Part shown: piece by piece, positions 1 through 21,265 of the stretch
Layout of the letters: each line of letters begins with the position of its first letter
Numbering within the stretch: position 1 is the stretch's first letter
Source: Candidatus Rifleibacteriota bacterium
Lineage (GTDB): Bacteria > Muiribacteriota > Ozemobacteria > Ozemobacterales > Ozemobacteraceae
Assembly: GCA_051747585.1 (NCBI GenBank)
Contig: JBNJGH010000060.1
Span: forward strand, 1-21,265
Direction: 5' to 3'
DNA: 21,265 bases
The notes under the pieces: model-generated
The model's database searches: none
The model's input: only the letters and a program-made list of their open reading frames with translations
What the model was told of the DNA's origin: nothing
Translations under genes and position numbers: made by a program

Positions 1-57
1 AAGAGCTGCTTCAACTCTTTTATTACGGGGCAGATCTACACCTGCTATTCGAGCCAT
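1..57 (-). CDS. rpsM: 30S ribosomal protein uS13, 5' part only (runs off the window)
   Basis: Not in ORF track. Manual translation from ATG at 57 gives MARIAGVDLPRNKRVEAAL, the canonical S13 N-terminus. An AGGAGG SD lies upstream and the gene follows rpmJ as expected. Confidence 0.97.
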   Translation of the reverse strand, partial: MARIAGVDLPRNKRVEAAL

Positions 58-6591: not shown

Positions 6592-6945
6592 TTACTTACG
6601 GCCAAGAGGCTCGTCAGTTTTAGCACATACGCGGTTTTTTTCGCCGCCCTGGGTAACGATTTTTGCTTTTGTAAGGCCTTTTCCGTCAGGAGTAAGCAAA
6701 CCAAGATTGCTTATGGCAACGGGGCCTTCTTTATCGATGATCCCGCCCTTACCAAGACTTTTACTTGGTCGGGTGTGTCTCTTTACGATATTAACGCCTT
6801 CCACATAGGCCTGGCCCTTTTCTGCATTTACAGTAAGAACCCTGCCCTTTTTACCTTTGTCTTCACCGCTGAGAACAACTACCATATCATCTTTTTTGAT
6901 GTGAGGTTTTGCTACAGCGCGTCTAGCTTTAACTTTTTTATGCAT
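6592..6945 (-). CDS. rplX: 50S ribosomal protein uL24
   Basis: KOW motif IKKDDMVVVLSGEDKGKKG, VEGVNIVKRH, GGIIDKEGP..SN. Confidence 0.96.
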   Translation of the reverse strand: MHKKVKARRAVAKPHIKKDDMVVVLSGEDKGKKGRVLTVNAEKGQAYVEGVNIVKRHTRPSKSLGKGGIIDKEGPVAISNLGLLTPDGKGLTKAKIVTQGGEKNRVCAKTDEPLGRK

Positions 6946-7621: not shown

Positions 7622-8254
7622 TTAAAAGGGAAGCCGGCCTGCGGTCAGTTCGCGCTGCAGAGCTCGAATATTTTCGAGTTCACGCAGTTTGGCACGCTTG
7701 GTTTCCTTAAGATTAGCAATTTGAGAAGCTTCATTTAATCCCATTTCAGACAATTTGTCAAGGAACTTCTTTCTAATTGTACATTTTGGGTCTTTTAATC
7801 TTTTAGAAACGGCTCTAAGCTGGACTTCTTCTTTACCTTTTGAATTTCTAAGTTTTTTAGAAACTTCACTTCTGATTGTTTTAATCAGCTCAGCAACTTT
7901 TTTATCGCAACTGGTGCGGATTTCCTTATCAACCATTTTAGCTTTTCTGGTAAGGCGACTTTTAAGCTGGGAAATTTTTTCACGAAGTGGTGTCTTCATT
8001 GAATCAATTTTCTCTTCCTTAAGCAAAGCATCATATTCATCTTTAAGCATCTGATGAAGTTTAGCCTTTTCCATTCTGGTCAGATAGGTTTTTACGCGAG
8101 CTATGTTGCGGCGCACAATGCTTATCCTCGAGGGATTAGACAACTGACCTGTTACCGCCTGAAATCTCAGGTTGAACAGTTCTTCTTTGTAATGTTTATA
8201 TTTTAGTTCGAGTTCCTGCTCGTTCAGTTCAGAAAAATCTTCTCGACTCTTCAT
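7622..8254 (-). CDS. rpmC: 50S ribosomal protein uL29 with ~147-aa C-terminal extension
   Basis: Residues 1-63 match L29 ([30 protein letters not shown]). The frame continues to 210 aa and ends 13 nt before rpsQ. Position between rplP and rpsQ. Confidence 0.93.
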
Positions 8255-8269
8255 GTTTCACCTTCCTAC

Positions 8270-8680
8270 TTACATTTTGCCGGATACTACCTGACAGCGA
8301 ATCGGTAATTTATTAGCTGCCTGGCTGAGAGATTTGATAGCAACACTTTCAGGTACGCCTTCGAGTTCGAACAGAATACGACCTGGTTTAACGACTGCTA
8401 CCCAGAATTCAGGAGCGCCTTTACCCTTACCCATACGGGTTTCGAGAGGCTTTTTAGAAACAGGTTTATCGGGAAAAATTCTTATCCACATTTTACCTGA
8501 ACGTTTAACGGTTCTGGTAATTACCTTACGAGCTGCTTCGATCTGAGCACTTGTGATCCAATGAGGATCAAGAGCCTGAAGACCGTAGGACCCAAACGCG
8601 AGATATTTTCCGCCTTTAGCTTCGCCCTTCATTCTTCCACGATGCTGCTTTCTGAATTTTGTTCTGGCTGGAATCAACAT
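8270..8680 (-). CDS. rplP: 50S ribosomal protein uL16
   Basis: [23 protein letters not shown] and RMGKGKG motifs. Confidence 0.98.
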
Positions 8681-8695
8681 AGTTCGGGTTCCTCC

Positions 8696-9364
8696 TTACT
8701 TTTTAGCTTCGCGGCTTGCAAAGTTCTGTTTGCCAATCTTTTCGCCTTTAAAGATCCATACTTTCACACCAACACAACCAAAAGTTGTAATTGCAGTGTC
8801 TTTAGCATAGTCAATATCAGCACGAAGAGTATGCAATGGAACTCTGCCTTCGCGAACCCATTCGCATCTGGCAATTTCGGCGCCGTTCAGTCTACCTGAA
8901 CAGGTAACTTTGATACCCTGAGCACCGGCTCTCATGGCACGACCGATTGTCTGTTTAATCGCACGACGATGTGACACTCTGCGTTCGAGCTGCAAAGCTA
9001 TACTTTCAGCGATAAGCTTGGCTTCAGTATCAGGCGATTTGATTTCCTGAATATTCAGGAAAACAGACTTTCCAGTCATTTTTTCAAGTTCTTTTTTGAG
9101 TATTTCTACTCTTTCGCCACCACGGCCGATAATAACGCCGGGTTTGGCTGTATAAATAGTTACACGCAGTTTATTATTTGACTTACGTTCGATTTCAATA
9201 CTGCCGATTCCTTCGCGGCGGAACTGTTTGTTATCGATGAATTCACGGATCTTCACATCTTCATGAAGAAAAGTTGCATAGTCGCTGCGTTTGGCGAACC
9301 ATCTTGAATCCCAGGTTCGGGTAATACCAAGACGAATTCCAACAGGGTTTACTTTCTGTCCCAT
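8696..9364 (-). CDS. rpsC: 30S ribosomal protein uS3
   Basis: [51 protein letters not shown] overlap with the rplV stop. Confidence 0.98.
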
Positions 9365-10116
9365 TATTCTTTACCTCCCTGGGTTTTAGTAGTTTTTTTG
9401 CTGGTTTTATTTGCTTCAGCCTTTTTGGTAGCTGTTTTTTTGCTTTTTGCAGTACCCTTTTTAGCTGTAGCTTTGGTTGTGGTTTTCTTTTTGCCTTTAG
9501 CGGCAGTTTTCTTTGTGCTCTGTTTGTCATCTTCTACTTCAAATTTAGACATAGAGAATTTTTCACGCAGAACTATAGTTGCATGAGAGGTTCTTTTTAA
9601 GATGCGGCAGGCACGTCCACGAGCCCTGGCCATAAATCTTTTCATTACGGGGCCGCCGTCTACGGCGACTTTGGCAATATAAAGATCATCGGCTCTGAGG
9701 TCATGGTTATTACCAGCATTGGCAATAGCTGATTTCAGTAGCTTAAGCAGAATTGGAGAACCGCCTTTTGGGAGGAACTGCAAAATGTCGAGTGCTTCAT
9801 CAACACTTTTACCACGAATTTCGTCTGCTACCAGTCTTAATTTTTTAGGACTGATTCGAATGTTTCTTACTACAGCCCTTGGCATTTCAAGCTGTTCAAT
9901 CAATTTGGATTTTTGTTTCCAGCTGAGAGAACCAACTTTTGGATAAACTTTTTCAAGTTTGCCGTTTGGCTGTAACTGGCGTTTATAAAGACCAACCTTG
10001 GTCAGAATAGTTTCAATTTTAGCCCGGCTGTTTTTTGTATCAAGGCCCTTGATCATACGAAGGCCGTTATACAGATCTACATCATCGGGAATGGTTACAC
10101 CTACAAGTCGTAACAT
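9364..10116 (-). CDS. rplV: 50S ribosomal protein uL22 fused to an N-terminal uS13-like domain and a C-terminal Lys/Thr/Ala-rich tail
   Basis: Residues ~78-186 are L22 ([45 protein letters not shown]). AAGGAG SD precedes ATG at 10116; no SD before internal Met78. Confidence 0.93.
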
Positions 10117-10134
10117 TATTATTATCTCCTTCCC

Positions 10135-11268: not shown

Positions 11269-11559
11269 TCAGGCAATTCCTTCGAAGAAATCAATTGAAT
11301 CGCCTTCTTTAAGGGTAACAATGGCTTTCTTCCAAGTTGAAGTAAAACCACGGAAAACCCCACGTCGTTTGGGTTTACGTACTACATTAAGAGTATTAAC
11401 CTTGGTAACAGATACTTCAAAAAGCTCTTCAACAGCATTCTTAATTTGACTCTTGTTAGCATCACGGGCTACTTTGAACTGATATATGCCTTCGCCCATA
11501 CGGTCATAGCTTTTTTCTGAAACGATAGGTCTAATAACTATATCCTGAGCTGTTTTCAT
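11269..11559 (-). CDS. rplW: 50S ribosomal protein uL23
   Basis: RPIVSEKS, ANK.QIK.AVEELF.V.V..VNT, WKKAIVTL motifs. Confidence 0.98.
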   Translation of the reverse strand: MKTAQDIVIRPIVSEKSYDRMGEGIYQFKVARDANKSQIKNAVEELFEVSVTKVNTLNVVRKPKRRGVFRGFTSTWKKAIVTLKEGDSIDFFEGIA

Positions 11560-12842: not shown

Positions 12843-13154
12843 TCAGAGCATCTTGATTTCGATGTTAACACCGGAGGGAAGGTCCATATTCATTAACGAA
12901 TCGACAGTTTGACCTGACGGATTAAAAAGATCGATATTTCTTTTGTGAATTCTCATTTCGAACTGCTCACGCGAGTCTTTGTTTACGAAAGGAGAACGCA
13001 GAACAGTATATTTCCGGATTTCGGTCGGCATAGGAATTGGACCGGAAATTTTTGTTCCAGTACGTTTTACGGTGTCGCAAATTCTGGCAACTGATTGATC
13101 AAGAAGGCGATGATCAAAAGCCTTTAAAGACAACCGCATCTTTTGCTTGGCCAT
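12843..13154 (-). CDS. rpsJ: 30S ribosomal protein uS10
   Basis: [35 protein letters not shown] motifs. Confidence 0.98.
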
Positions 13155-13197
13155 TTTAAAATCCTCCTTGTGGATTTCAATAAAAGTTGATAACCGT

Positions 13198-15327
13198 TTA
13201 GTTGTCGCCGGCTATCATCTGCTGGGGTGGCTGGCTGTAGCCAAACACACCGAGAATACGTTCAGTGACACTTTGTGGGACTTCATCATAATGAAGCAAT
13301 TCCATGGTAAAGGTTGCACGACCCTGCGAGAGAGATCTCAGCTGGGTTGAATAACCAAACATGTCAGAAAGTGGTGAATGACATTCAACGATTCTCATGT
13401 CATTACGCATTTCCATATTAATTACTTTTCCTCTTCTGGCATTAATATTGCCGATAATATCGCCCATATACTGTTCAGGCGTTTCAATTTCAACCCTCAT
13501 AAAGGGTTCGAGCAAAACGGGCCCGGCACAGCGCATTGCTGACTTCATAGCTTCATAAGTGGCAATTTTAAAGGCAATGTCATTACTGTCGCTTTCATTA
13601 TAAGAACCGCCGACCAGACGCACATCAACATCTACCACAGGGAACCCTGCGAGAATGCCATCGTTCATTGCGTCTCTGCATCCTTGATGAATAGATTCAA
13701 CATATTCTGCAGGAATTTCTTCGGCTTTTGCCTTATTAGTAAATCTGAAGCCTTTACCTCTTTCCAGGGGTTCAACTTCAATAACTACATGAGCATACTG
13801 ATTCTTGTTACCAAGAGTCTTTTCAAACAGATTTTCGCCTCTTCCCCTGGTGGTAATTCCTTCTTTATAAGCAACCTGAGGCTTGCCAACCGAAGCTTTA
13901 ACCTTAAATTCTCTAATAATTCGGTCAACAATTACTTCCAGATGTAGCTCCCCCATACCAGAGATAAGGGTTTCACCGGTATCTGGATCAATTTTTGCTT
14001 TAAAAGTAGGATCTTCATCCATCAGGGCTTCAAGAACATCACCGAGTTTAGATAAATCGGCCTGGGTTTGAGGCTCAATAGCAACTGAAATAACAGTTTC
14101 AGGAAACGTAATTTTTTCAAAAGTAACAAACCGGGGGTCAGTAGAAAGTGTTTCGCCGGTGGCAACTTTTTTAAGACCTATAGCTGCAACTATATCACCT
14201 GCTTCAACCCTTTGCAGGTCTTTGCGCTGATTAGCATGCATCTGTAAAAATCTGCCTATCCGTTCTTTTCTTCCTTCTTTACTGACATTGTAAACAACTT
14301 TTCCGGCGTCGAGTGCTCCGGAGTATACTCTAAGGTATGCAAGCTTACCAACATGGGTATCGGTTGCCACCTTAAAAACCAGAGCAGCAAATTCGGCTTC
14401 AGGGTCAGCAGGAACTTTAACTTCTTCTTCTTTTTCCAGGGTAAAACCTGTTGCCGCTGGAATATCCAATGGAGAAGGAAGATAATCAACAATGGCGTCA
14501 AGAAGGTCTTGAACACCTTTGTTTTTAAAGGCCGAACCGCACATAACCGGCACAACCTTATTGTTAACGACTGCTTTCCGCAGAACCCGGCGGATCAACA
14601 CTTCGGGAATTTCTTTTTCTTCGAGATAAAGCTCGAGAATCTCATCATTAAAGGAACTGAGAGTTTCCAGCATTTGTTCACGAGCCATTTCGACCTGATC
14701 TTGCAAATTTTGAGGAATTTCACACTTTTTGAATTCGGCCCCAAGAGACTTGTCCTCTTCGAGGTTCCAGATATGAGCCTTCATGGTAACCAGATCAACA
14801 TGACCGGCAAAACTATCTTCGCAACCAATCGGTAAAACGACAGGCAAAGGTTTAGATTTCAGTCTTTCTTTGATCTGGGTAACAACCCGCTCAAAATTGG
14901 CACCTACGCGGTCCATCTTGTTGACGAAAGCGATTCTTGGGACTCTGTAGTTTTCGGCCTGGCGCCAGACGGTTTCAGATTGAGGCTGAACTCCGGCAAC
15001 GGCACAGAATACAACTACAGCACCATCGAGAACTCTAAGCGATCTTTCCACTTCGGCAGTAAAATCCACGTGACCGGGCGTGTCTATAATATTAATGTCA
15101 CAATCGGCCCAATGGCATTTAGTTGCCGCGCTTGTTATGGTAATTCCTCGTTCCTGTTCTTGAACCATCCAGTCCATAACAGCTGTTCCTTCATGAACCT
15201 CGCCCATCTTATAGGCTTTACCGGTATAATAAAGAATACGCTCGGTGGTTGTGGTTTTTCCCGCATCAATGTGGGCCACAATACCGATATTCCTTATATT
15301 TTTCATTTTTGAACTACTGGTAGTCAT
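13198..15327 (-). CDS. fusA: Elongation factor G with divergent domain IV
   Basis: [46 protein letters not shown] and LRSLSQGRA motifs; follows rpsG. Confidence 0.96.
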
Positions 15328-16418: not shown

Positions 16419-19400
16419 TCAGCCTTCGTCGGTTTCAGCTTTTTTCATGAAGAGGTCTTCTTCGAGCTGATCAAGATTGGCTTTATCGCTTGAGTCGACA
16501 AAAAGTTCGTCTGTTGGACCTTCGGCAGCTTCAATTTCAGCTGGAAGATTTTTGAACAAAATATCTTTCGATATGGAGATACCTGTTCCAGCCGGAATCA
16601 ATTTACCGATAATAAGGTTTTCTTTGAGACCTTTAAGATAATCGACTTTTGATTTAATTGCAGCCTTGGTAAGAACTCTGGTTGTTTCCTGGAAGGATGC
16701 GGCGGAAATAAAGCTATCTGTAGTCAGAGAAGCTTTGGTAATACCCTGAATCATAGGAACGCCGACAGGTGGTTTTTTACCTTTTTCGATCAGTTTATTA
16801 ACCTTTTCTTCAAACCTGCGAACATGTACTGATTCGTTAGGCAGAAATTCTGAATTACCAGATTCGGTAATTACAACTTTTCTAAGCATCTGACGAACAA
16901 TTATTTCGATATGCTTATCGTTAATGCTTACGCCCTGATCACGATAAACTCTTTGAATTTCATCCATCAGATAGCGTCTAACGAATGGCAGGCCAACAAC
17001 CTTAACAAGTTTTTTCGGGAAAACTTTACCATCAGTAAGAACGTCGCCAGCTTCGATATATTCGCCATCGTGAACTACCAGAGCGGTTGCACCAAACTGA
17101 ACCCTTACAGGTTTTTCGACACCGCTGTTGAAATCTCTGATCGCAACTGAGCTACCGGAGACATGAACAATGCCGGATTCTTCAGCAATAACTGCTTCTT
17201 TTTTGGGTTTTCTTACTTCAAACAATTCGGCTACACGTGGCAGACCCTGAATAATGTCTGTTGTTTTTCTTGCTGAGGCGCCCCATTTTGCAAGGATTTC
17301 ACCTTTTTTAACTTTTACGCCATCTTCAATTCTGAGTTCAGCGCCATCCATTATCTGGTGGGACTCACCCGGTTGAACGACAATGGTTTTGATTGTACTC
17401 TTAACCTTGCCTTCTTTTGATACATCGTGCTCAAGTAAAACAACACCTTTATTTTCGGCTTTTAATACTGCCAGAACATGACCTTGTTTGATCTTGTCAC
17501 CGTCTTCTACTCTTAAACAGCCTGCAGCTACCATGTCTTTGGTAATTGCATATTTTTTGTCTTTAATTACTTTCTGACAAATTCTAATGCCAACAGAGCC
17601 ATCGGAGTCTTCTACCTGTGAATAGGTCTGGAAAGGTATAGGTGCTATGGTCAGCTCACCGTCTTTTACGACAGTAGGAGGAAATTTCAAGCTCAAAGTA
17701 GCTGGATAACTGAATTCCACGCCACTATAAACCAGAATCTTTTCGATTATTTCTTCACAGATGATTTTGTTATAACCGTAGATATAGTTAACTTTACCAG
17801 CTATTTCAGAAGTCATAGGTTCAATGTCACTAACCAGTTTATCACCGGCTTTAACTACCTGACCATCTTCTACTACAACTGATGCGCCGGCTGGAACCGG
17901 ATACTGAACTTTAATATCATCTTCACCGATAATATTTACAGCTTCCTGTTCACCCTTAATTATATAAACTTCTCTGATTGAACCACGATTTTCTTCAAAC
18001 AAAGCAAACAGATCGTCATCAATTTCAGTGCCGCTTTCGGCCACAACTTCATCTGTTTCTTTATTGATTGCAGCTCTTGCCAGAGTGGCTCCTGGAAGCA
18101 CGTCTATATCGTCACTGATCAGATGTACCCTGGCCTCGGATTTAATGTCGGTAAGCTCGATAGTGCCATCGATTTCTGCTTGAATAACCAGTTTGGTAGT
18201 GAGTTCACCATCTTCTGCAACATCGCCACCATTAGGTATACGACAATTCTCTTTAGGCCTGAGAATTACGCCACGAGGAACCGGGTATTCGATTTCGTTT
18301 TTAACAATAACTCTTTTACGGTCAAGAGTTTTGTTGGCAGCGCTCTTTTCGTTAATTACTCTTACAACACCAGAGATTGGGGCTATAAGCGACAGGTTTT
18401 TATTCTGTTCATCTATGGCAGCAGCCATTTCGCCTTTGAATTCGTATTCTTCTTCAACTTCTTTAGCAATAGTAAGTTTAGCACCACCAGAAGACAGATT
18501 TAAGGTTCCTTCTACTTCAGAAACGATAGAGAGCATTTTCTGCCCCGGATATACCTCGTCACCATTTTTAACGTTCAATATGACACCAGAGGATTTAACC
18601 GTTCCGATTTTAGGTTCTTTAACGCTTTTTGGCATGTTGTATTCTTTGCGTTCGCCTTCTTTATCATCGGTTGGGAAAACAAAGATCATACCATTGTCGC
18701 TGATAACCTGTTTGTTTTTTATGCGAACCTTTTCAAGTTTTACTATACCATCGGTTCTGGCAATAGCAGCATGAGATTCTGCCGAAATTTCAGCCAGCAG
18801 GTTACCGGCATGTATAATTTCGTTATCTTCTACTTTTAAAGTTGCGCCCTGTGGTATTTTATAATCTTCGATAATGAAGTCTTTGGTAACAGGATCAAAA
18901 TCCTGGGTAAGTATTCTGATAATACCTTCATCAGAAACAACCATACCATCTTTCTGTTCGATGTCTTCGTAGATTACCTCACCAGTGTATCCTGAAACTA
19001 CGTTATTCGGATTGTATTCAGCAACAGCCTTACCCGGAGTTACTTTATCACCATCTTCTATACGCATTTCAGCGCCGACCGGAATATGGAGACGGTCTTT
19101 TCTGCCGCTTTTACTTTCGACCCCGAGGAAGCCACCAACAACAACTGTTTTGATATTGCTGCCAAATTCACTCTTATCAAAAGTTTCAATTCCTGAACCA
19201 ATTTCGAATTTCGCTCTATCTGAGACTTTAGCCAATTTAAGATTATCAAACCTTGCAAGGCCAGAGCTTCTTGCTTTTATATACGAACGTTGAGCCAGAG
19301 CAACACCACCAAGGTGGAATGTTCTCATTGTCAACTGAGTTCCCGGTTCACCGATCGACTGGGCTGCAATAATACCAACTGCTTCGCCGATATCTACAAC

Positions 19401-21231
19401 TTTGCCGGTCGCCAGATCTGATCCGTAGCACATCTGACAAATACCAACTTTAGAGCGGCAGGTAAGAGGTGAGCGCATTACAATTTTACTGCGAACTTTA
19501 ATTTCTGGAAATGCACCTTCGCCGAGTCTTTCAAGAACATATTCGTTAATTTCACGGTCGGGTCTAAGAATAATTCTGTTACTTCTGGGATCAATAAGCT
19601 GTTCGGCACAGATCATGCCGGGTTTCAGTTCATTGAAGGGAATTGGGAAATCACAATTTGACTCTATTTCACTTGCAATTTCATTGGTGCAGTATAGGCC
19701 TGCTTCAAGCTTAACCGTTTTCTTATTGACCTTAATAGAAAGGGTTCTACCGGTAGCTGGATTTACTATTGGTTTTGCCAGAACCCTTCCGGCTATCCTG
19801 TAACGAATCGGAACAACGATATCATCGATCATGATATTATTTGAAGTTCTGTTCTGACGAATTGGAGAGACTTCGACACCTAACTGACTTCCACAGTCCT
19901 GTTTAGTGATAACAACATCCTGAGCAACATCTACCAGTCTTCTGGTAAGGTAACCGGAGTCAGCTGTGCGCAGCGCTGTATCTACAAGACCTTTTCTTGC
20001 ACCGTATGTTGAAATGAAGTATTCAGACTGGTTCAATCCCTGGCGGAAATTTGATTTAATCGGGAAAGCAAGAATATCACCACGTGGATTCGACATCAGA
20101 CCACGCATAGCGGCCAGCTGTCGGATCTGTTGCATATTACCTCTCGCACCGGAGAACGCCATCATGTACACGGGATTAAATTCACCCAGATGAGCACTGG
20201 CTTCAAATTCCTGGAGAAGGTCATCGGTAACGTCTTCTGTTGCTTTTGTCCAGACATTAACTTCAGCCTGTTTTCTTTCATCACGACTGATTTCACCTTT
20301 GCCCCAACGTTCGCGTATCTTGACAACTTTTTTATCAGCCTGGTCAAGAATTTCATTTTTCTTGGGCGGATCAATCATATCAACAATAGAGATTGTAAGA
20401 CCGGAATAGGTAGCAAATTTAAAGCCAAGAGCTTTAAGTTTATCAAGAGTTTCACCAATTATTGAAAGTGAATACATGTCGAACAATCTCTTAATAAGAC
20501 TGGACACATTCCCTTTTTTAACCTGAAGATTCTGGAAAGGGAAACCGGAAGGCAGATTATCATTAAAAATAACTCTACCAATAGTAGTTCTTAAATAACT
20601 GTCTCTGACAGAATCTTTTTTGTCGTCTTCATCATACTGTTCAACCACCAGAGAATCTTTTTTGAGATATACCGGCCACTGAAGGCTGAACTGATTTGTT
20701 TCATAAGCATTCAGAGCTTCCTGCAGGCTATGGAATACAGGTGGGCGATAAACAATAATCTTATCTACTTTAGCTTTATTAAGCAGATTAATAGTTTCTT
20801 TTGAGTCCAGAACCGTTCCTGCAGGAAGATCGTCATCGACATCATCAGCCAGTTTAAAGTTAAACGGCCTGCCTTCGTTCAGCAGTAATTTTTCCCAGGT
20901 CAACCCCTTTTTGGTTTTGAGTTCAGTAACCGGATAACCATCGCCTTCAGGTTTTTCGATTGTCAGGTAGAACAAACCAATGGTCATATCCTGTGATGGG
21001 CTGGTAACTGGATTACCATCCGCTGGTTTTAGAATATTATTGCTGGAAAGCATGAGTAAACGTGCTTCGATCTGAGCATCAACCATAAGCGGAACATGCA
21101 CAGCCATCTGATCGCCATCAAAGTCAGCGTTATAAGCAGCACATACAAGAGGATGTATCTGAATCGCCTTACCTTCGATAAGAACGGGTTCGAATGCCTG
21201 GATGCCAAGTCTATGCAGTGTGGGAGCGCGG
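16419..21231 (-). CDS. rpoC: DNA-directed RNA polymerase beta-prime subunit, 5'-truncated, with very large trigger-loop insertion
   Basis: [13 protein letters not shown], catalytic [27 protein letters not shown], Zn site [58 protein letters not shown]. The N-terminal ~420 residues expected are not in the window. Confidence 0.97.
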
Positions 21232-21265
21232 CTGAAGGGGAAATGGGAGATAAGCATGTCGGGTT

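Follow-up and report, generated by a model that had tools for sequence, protein, structure and literature searches.

A probable uS13-derived domain on ribosomal protein uL22 accompanies enlarged uL29 and bL17 in one bacterial family

Why would a bacterial ribosome enlarge a few of its proteins so strongly, and do so around the polypeptide exit? The DNA that raises this question, hereafter the window, is a stretch of 21,265 nucleotides constituting the entire contig C60 of one genome (G000), and its minus strand carries the str-S10-spc operons. Among the 24 ribosomal proteins of the window, L22 and L29 exceed their NCBIfam model lengths by 147 and 154 aa, respectively, while none of the other 22 does so by more than ~23 aa, which bears out the initial annotation in naming these two as the only grossly enlarged ones. 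That annotation went further and proposed a coordinately built protein platform at the tunnel exit, comparable to the remodelled exit of mitochondrial ribosomes. The features on which our analysis draws are listed below with the basis of each assignment.

9364..10116, minus strand: rplV, encoding uL22 of 250 aa in a single ORF (Pfam/NCBIfam match, length versus model)
9886..10116, minus strand: uL22 residues 1-77, N-terminal domain very probably derived from the uS13 N-terminal H2TH domain (profile and fold comparison)
9946..9984, minus strand: uL22 residues 45-57, predicted beta-hairpin inserted in the S13-like domain (model and alignment)
9559..9885, minus strand: uL22 core, residues 78-186, with Pfam PF00237 at 81-184 (Pfam)
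9367..9558, minus strand: uL22 residues 187-250, K/T/A-rich tail, predicted disordered and poorly conserved (model and alignment)
10126..10131, minus strand: Shine-Dalgarno-like AAGGAG preceding the long rplV start (sequence)
7622..8254, minus strand: rpmC, encoding uL29 of 210 aa in a single ORF (Pfam/NCBIfam match, length versus model)
8069..8254, minus strand: uL29 core, residues 1-62 (Pfam and fold comparison)
7625..8068, minus strand: uL29 residues 63-210, extension that is basic and helical, predicted to form an antiparallel coiled-coil arm with helices 90-137 and 175-204 (model)
6910..6945, minus strand: short basic N-terminal segment of uL24, ~12 aa, ordinary for the phylum (family comparison)
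11269..11559, minus strand: uL23, 96 aa, normal length (NCBIfam length comparison)
1..57, minus strand: genuine rpsM (uS13), 5′ end only, with the full 120-aa gene on contig C135 of the same genome (profile match)

The identity of both enlarged proteins follows from their cores: uL22 scores 134 bits against a cut-off of 28 over residues 81-184 (PF00237, TIGR01044) and is located between S19 and S3, and uL29 scores 73.5 bits against 24.5 over residues 6-59 (PF00831, TIGR00012) at its S10-operon position. Automated annotation labels these proteins, and the enlarged bL17 described below, as plain L22, L29 and L17. An assembly error was rejected as the source of the additions because they are family-wide in f1, the uncultured family of this genome (f2-f11 denote the other families of the phylum), with codon changes that are mostly synonymous, and a frameshift or chimera is ruled out by conservation. 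Translation of L22 from the internal Met78 was likewise rejected, given that no Shine-Dalgarno-like site precedes it and the Met is not conserved. Compared with five and four same-genus genomes, respectively, the L22 and L29 additions show a ratio of synonymous to non-synonymous codon changes of ~3:1. Relative to the window sequence, the L22 N-domain averages 73% identity, the L22 core 78% and the L22 tail 30% (43 rows); the L29 arm averages 68% and the L29 core 82% (48 rows). The length of L29 in f1 is almost fixed at 210 aa. The L22 and L29 additions are under purifying selection.

The predicted structure of L22 is confident for residues 1-80 (pLDDT ~92) and disordered beyond residue 193 (pLDDT <50), a pattern that divides the gain into a 77-aa domain and a 64-aa K/T/A tail. 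The ~140-150 aa originally ascribed to L22 are thus correct in size and wrong as a single unit, since a folded N-domain and a disordered tail contribute separately. The tail consists of 66% K/T/A and has similar counterparts in other families. A short N-terminal extension of L24, also singled out at the outset, does exist (~12 aa), but it is in no way special: extensions as long or longer occur in f4, f7 and f9, and L5 and S5 of the window show an equal or greater excess. L24 was consequently rejected as a part of any system.

The folded domain of L22 is very probably a diverged copy of the N-terminal H2TH domain of uS13 (PF00416), as judged from profile and fold comparisons. In a fold search with the predicted L22 model as query, 27 uL22 rows came first, followed by seven uS13 chains (identified as such from chain ids and entry titles), all of the latter aligned over residues 1-78. 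The uS13 matches have Z scores of 7.3-8.4 and rmsd values of 1.2-2.0 Å over 59-62 residues; the best (Z 8.4, rmsd 1.6 Å, 61 residues) lies near the noise level stated for the tool. Other H2TH proteins rank below uS13 (Z ≤6.2), and SCO1480 and KsgA entries are also among the fold matches. The domain keeps R3 and G6 of the S13 N-terminal motif as well as G24, omits the C-terminal half of S13 and joins the L22 core at residue 78. In the G-I-G hairpin the first glycine is invariant (G24) and the second is replaced in 14 of 14 rows, a loss that may weaken RNA contact. The f1 domain has acquired a beta-hairpin (residues 45-57), variable in length within f1 and missing from f4 and f7, as well as invariant Y58, P59 and W66. 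Resembling its presumed parent in fold and N-terminal motif, the L22 copy differs in being fused to a large-subunit protein and, in f1, in carrying the inserted hairpin. All 36 f1 genomes examined, and G000 as well, have in addition an intact S13 of their own (two as partial matches).

When only f1 sequences are considered, their resemblance to S13 is weak. A Pfam scan of the window L22 gave no S13 match in the N-domain, and a PDB sequence search with this domain returned four matches at E up to 10, all of them uS13 at E ~1. An f1 profile searched against the PDB yielded three matches, two of which were uS13, with one unrelated protein ranked first. HHalign aligned the f1 domain to S13 with 65% probability (E 6e-5) and to the f4/f7 domain with 79% (E 1.5e-5). 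Scored with an S13 profile, the window sequence was reached by 0 of 200 shuffles, 14 of 17 f1 sequences by at most 3 of 200, and the other three f1 sequences and P0168 by 11-33 of 200. P0168 is a divergent uL22 of 216 aa with an f1-type N-domain in which the hairpin is present.

Much closer sequences were found in two other families. A Pfam S13 search of 61 genomes matched the L22 N-termini of G039 and G045 (f4) and G042 (f7), whose L22 proteins are 174 aa long with an S13-like domain aligning over ~62 residues. These domains match Pfam S13 at E 4e-5 to 7e-5, with 24 bits that lie below the whole-protein cut-off of 31; HHalign relates them to S13 at 98% (E 6e-14), their best PDB matches are all uS13 (E down to 2e-7), and their S13-profile scores were each reached by 0 of 200 shuffles. 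A 62-column tree, which carries a long-branch warning, places a branch (85/89) between 13 L22 domains and 12 S13 sequences. Less-diverged intermediates of the putative graft therefore appear to survive in f4 and f7. Extensions of ribosomal proteins are usually tails without a known origin; that of L22 would have a traceable source, a 30S protein domain reused on the 50S subunit.

The distribution of the two additions was then compared across the phylum. Among 37 f1 genomes searched, G000 included, the L22 extension is present in all 34 with an L22 match and the L29 extension in all 35 with an L29 match (two split at contig ends), and both occur together in all 33 genomes having both genes. Homologues of both extensions are named Ca. 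Riflebacteria, Ca. Rifleibacterium or Ca. Ozemobacter in their sources. A phylum-wide search gave a strong match in 42 of 51 f1 genomes; the nine others are 64-97% complete, with L22 itself unchecked in six. The outgroup sample comprised 24 genomes of other families, 23 of which yielded both L22 and L29. L29 is of normal length in all 23, and their 22 readable L22 N-termini fall into 3 that are S13-like (f4, f7), 12 without extension, 6 with an unrelated segment of ~45-50 aa (f3) and 1 with ~28 aa (f9). The f3 segment (L092, L098, L103, L106, L110, L111) showed no likeness to S13 in any of the six sequences. In the G046 assembly (L100) rplV is apparently interrupted in its 5′ part, leaving the N-terminus unreadable. 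Because an S13-like L22 domain occurs in the three f4/f7 genomes with a normal L29, the gains were not simultaneous; of the proposed coordination, co-occurrence stands (33/33 f1 genomes) and simultaneity does not. The pattern is nested, with the L22 domain gained earlier or more than once. Grouping f1, f4 and f7 as one clade has a p-AU of 0.055, and the deep branches of the family tree have 33-49% support.

Searches were also extended beyond the phylum. Screening 1.84 billion representatives with a profile produced 10 matches, consisting of f1 sequences or fragments, P0168, three S13 and three repeat artefacts. It found no S13-L22 fusion outside the phylum and missed the f4/f7 versions too, so its reach is limited. 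An f4 L22 query retrieved its own cluster only, and a genome scan for S13-L22 fusions returned only the two f4 loci already known. In an unrepresentative sample of 61 metagenomic loci, the domain was found in 0 of 58 unrelated L22 genes with a visible upstream stop, and a 40-aa extension in 0 of 31 complete L29 genes.

The 148-aa extension of L29 is a predicted antiparallel coiled-coil arm. Modelled with a mean pLDDT of 87, L29 consists of helices throughout, the long ones spanning 42-80, 90-137 and 175-204; residues 84-210 align to antiparallel helical hairpins in a fold search. The 48-residue helix, about 70 Å long, could span the ring or point outward. Searches for an origin were negative: a PDB sequence search gave no match, Foldseek nothing below E 0.001, and Atlas matches were all below 0.9, while the fold matches were generic helical hairpins with Z ≤8.6, below the tool's threshold for helical folds. 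Matches to eukaryotic uL29, extending weakly to position 105, were not accepted as homology. The arm has a net charge of +19, with K or R in at least 90% of 48 rows at 17 of 148 positions; the corresponding values for the L22 N-domain are +7 and 9 of 77 positions (43 rows).

An enlargement scan covering 50 ribosomal proteins against NCBIfam, plus L28, S20 and S21 (53 in all, S1 left out), revealed a third strongly enlarged protein. Only L29 (+154), L22 (+147) and L17 (+95) stand far above model length, the next being S2 (+51). On the next contig (C135:5181-5804, equivalent to L157:1492-2115), bL17 is 207 aa long with an internal insertion of ~90 aa. The insertion is present in all 28 readable f1 sequences from 31 loci tried (lengths 179-250 aa), is mildly basic (+6 over 100 aa) and matched no Pfam family. 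At the same site, f2 proteins have a different, shorter insertion in 6 of 6 cases (protein lengths 147-162 aa; L178-L181, L183, L185), basic, 30-45 aa long and independent of that of f1, and bL17 of f3-f9 has no insertion beyond a few residues. Among the families compared, the L29 arm and the f1-type L17 insertion are confined to f1. Two genomes, G013 and G024 (L194, L195), have a tandemly duplicated bL17 core module.

The six-protein exit ring listed in bioRxiv 10.1101/312850 includes L17, L22 and L29, so the claim that enlargements cluster at the exit gained an instance found after it was made. Given the first two, the chance that the third enlarged protein belongs to the ring is ~4/51 = 0.08; for all three it is 0.0009, a post hoc figure.

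We next consider whether the exit has been remodelled more broadly, as loss of exit factors and 23S indels would indicate. No factor tested was lost: trigger factor is present in 61 of 61 genomes, L32, PDF and Ffh in 5 of 5 f1 genomes tested, and a full SRP RNA of the large type (RF01854) in the same number, the G000 copy lying at C50:6127-6392 (L236). The window itself contains genes identified by sequence and position as SecY and MAP. Of the 61 genomes, 8 yielded 23S rRNA; with one fragmented f2 sequence left out, the alignment to E. coli held three full and one partial f1 sequences and three from f5/f6, with none from f4/f7. Within this comparison we found no large f1-specific indel and no compensating deletion that the additions would replace. 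Relative to f5/f6, the f1 sequences (L130, L133, L135, L136) gain ~10 nt at E. coli 1703-1771 and ~5 at 2781-2821, which we take to be H63 and H98, and 2 at 121-157. Compared with E. coli, all four f1 sequences have 3 nt more in this last segment, identified as H9 in PMC5071890, and segment 60-120 loses at most 1 nt.

An analogy with mitochondrial ribosomes is accordingly too strong. With TF, PDF, Ffh and SRP RNA retained and no large 23S indel, the f1 exit is not organelle-like, and the gains were not simultaneous; the one organelle-type feature present is the extension of several exit-ring proteins (L17, L22, L29), while loss of SRP RNA or factors and truncation of H7/H9 in domain I are missing. 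As described in PMC5694952 and PMC5071890, chloroplast ribosomes have a nearly doubled uL22c, a C-terminally extended uL29c, a truncated H7, a deleted H9, a replaced uL23 and no SRP RNA. The f1 ribosome shares the enlarged L22 and C-terminally extended L29, and differs in having no loss of H7/H9 or SRP RNA and a normal L23. The uL29c extension is placed at H9 (PMC5071890) and against uL23 (PMC5694952).

The closest precedent is Mycoplasma pneumoniae, in which, according to PMC9534751, L22 and L29 of a single bacterium are likewise extended by ordered helices, and these bind peripheral rRNA more than 30 Å from the exit. Its L23 is also extended, unlike the 96-aa L23 here, and its L22 addition is a long helix rather than an N-terminal globular domain; in f1, L29 is longer by 148 aa and L17 contains an insertion. 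M. pneumoniae L22 and L29 chains align to the f1 models over the cores only. NCBIfam fusions such as NF008917 (L22/unknown domain) and the 'sunset domain' models NF051448-NF051451 similarly append lineage-specific domains, but the scores here fall far below their cut-offs (107 versus 526 bits for NF008917, 74 versus 280 for NF051448) and matches are confined to cores and tail. Both Mycoplasma and organelles already provide examples of extended exit-ring proteins. The apparent novelty is that one family combines a uS13 graft on uL22, with living intermediates, with an L29 arm of 148 aa and an insertion in L17; our literature search, outside which most subscription papers lay, found no S13-L22 fusion and no study of the Riflebacteria ribosome.

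Overall, we consider there to be an even chance that the additions function as a pair of separate clamps, built into the ribosome, that hold peripheral 23S rRNA, and do not form one new platform. The 5′ half of rpsM would first have been duplicated and fused to rplV, an early event inasmuch as f4 and f7 have the domain too. Later gains, placed in the ancestor of f1, would be the beta-hairpin and the new conserved aromatics Y58 and W66 of the L22 domain, the insertion of L17 and the arm of L29. The L22 domain and the L17 insertion may lie together on the L17-L22-L32 side, beside the PDF/MAP dock, and the L29 arm may prolong the C-terminal helix of L29 across domain I close to H9, on the same side as L23. 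Their function would be to help assemble the 50S surface and keep it stable, any adjustment of PDF docking being secondary at most. Basic K/R surfaces, the nested distribution, the retained exit factors, the M. pneumoniae and chloroplast precedents, and contact networks of solved ribosomes favour the two-clamp reading over its rivals; these networks group L22 with L17/L32 and L29 with L23/L34/domain I (PMC7535068). Counting against it are the missing 23S deletion, the lost second glycine of the hairpin, the weak link of the f1 domain to S13, the only mild charge of the L17 insertion, the reach of the 48-residue L29 helix and the acidic PDF tails described below. Predicted complexes of L22 (1-187) with L17 and L29 scored 0.01 and 0.00, uninformative either way. 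If correct, the S13-L22 series provides a stepwise record of ribosome-surface growth in a bacterium from which none of the tested exit factors is missing.

A functional platform at the exit, the idea of the initial annotation with L17 added, is a less probable but still serious possibility; docking of PDF, MAP, SRP or the translocon would be reshaped jointly by the L22 domain and the L17 insertion, perhaps with the L29 arm as well. All three strongly enlarged proteins of the 53 belong to the exit ring, the enlargements co-occur throughout f1, and the uL29c extension of chloroplasts shields the SRP pocket of uL23c (PMC5694952). Tails of PDF beyond the basic helix hint at a factor-facing role: they are net acidic in all 10 main f1 PDFs and at -5 or lower in 7, a level reached in other families by just 1 of 19 PDFs with long tails, and they are basic in f3, f4 and f7 (PDF loci L149-L153, L238-L241, L244). 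This comparison is post hoc, draws on kin that are not independent and includes two loci that gave no motif, and the PDF tail of G000 itself is only -2. Further points against a platform are the nested rather than matched distribution of the L22 and L29 additions, retention of all tested factors together with the full large SRP RNA, and the normal L23. A more elaborate version, somewhat less probable again, joins the S13-like domain on L22, the L17 insertion and the 70-Å L29 arm into a three-part collar to which the acidic PDF tail has co-adapted for docking. Were it true, a free-living bacterial lineage would have re-engineered nascent-chain processing as organelles did, in datable steps.

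It is distinctly unlikely that the L29 arm or the S13-like domain reaches outward to the membrane or to a neighbouring ribosome (for example at L5/L31) in polysomes or resting dimers. The long predicted coiled-coil hairpin of L29 would be suited to such a contact, in solved ribosomes true S13 belongs to the same contact group as L5, S19 and L31 (PMC7535068), and the L22 domain keeps R3 and G6 of the S13 N-terminal motif; yet the strong net positive charge suits rRNA of the same particle, and the f1 domain is far diverged from S13. Ribosomal proteins commonly autoregulate, and the H2TH domain is a nucleic-acid-binding fold, as its SCO1480 and KsgA matches illustrate. Free L22 might on these grounds bind mRNA or pre-rRNA through its S13-like domain as an operon regulator or assembly chaperone, a role that we judge very improbable and that leaves L29 and L17 unexplained. 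Near-neutral accretion without a specific role is the least credible reading: extensions are common across bacteria (PMC9534751), the L22 tail is variable and unrelated enlargements of L22 and L17 occur in other families, but the additions are under purifying selection, their mean identities of 73% and 68% are near those of the cores (78% and 82%), and L29 is nearly fixed at 210 aa.

Several other genes also have unusual features. In the window, rpsJ comes immediately after fusA without an intervening tuf (13147-15327), a tuf gene being located on contig C19 beside rpmG and secE. The 3′ part of rpoC (16419-21265) by itself codes for more than 1600 aa, which implies that beta-prime carries a very large insertion within its C-terminal half. 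Elsewhere in the genome, a 103-aa gene lies between rplU and rpmA (C94:3184-3768); from its motif, its product is presumably similar to the Prp protease. L27 of G000 apparently starts without the N-terminal extension that Prp removes.
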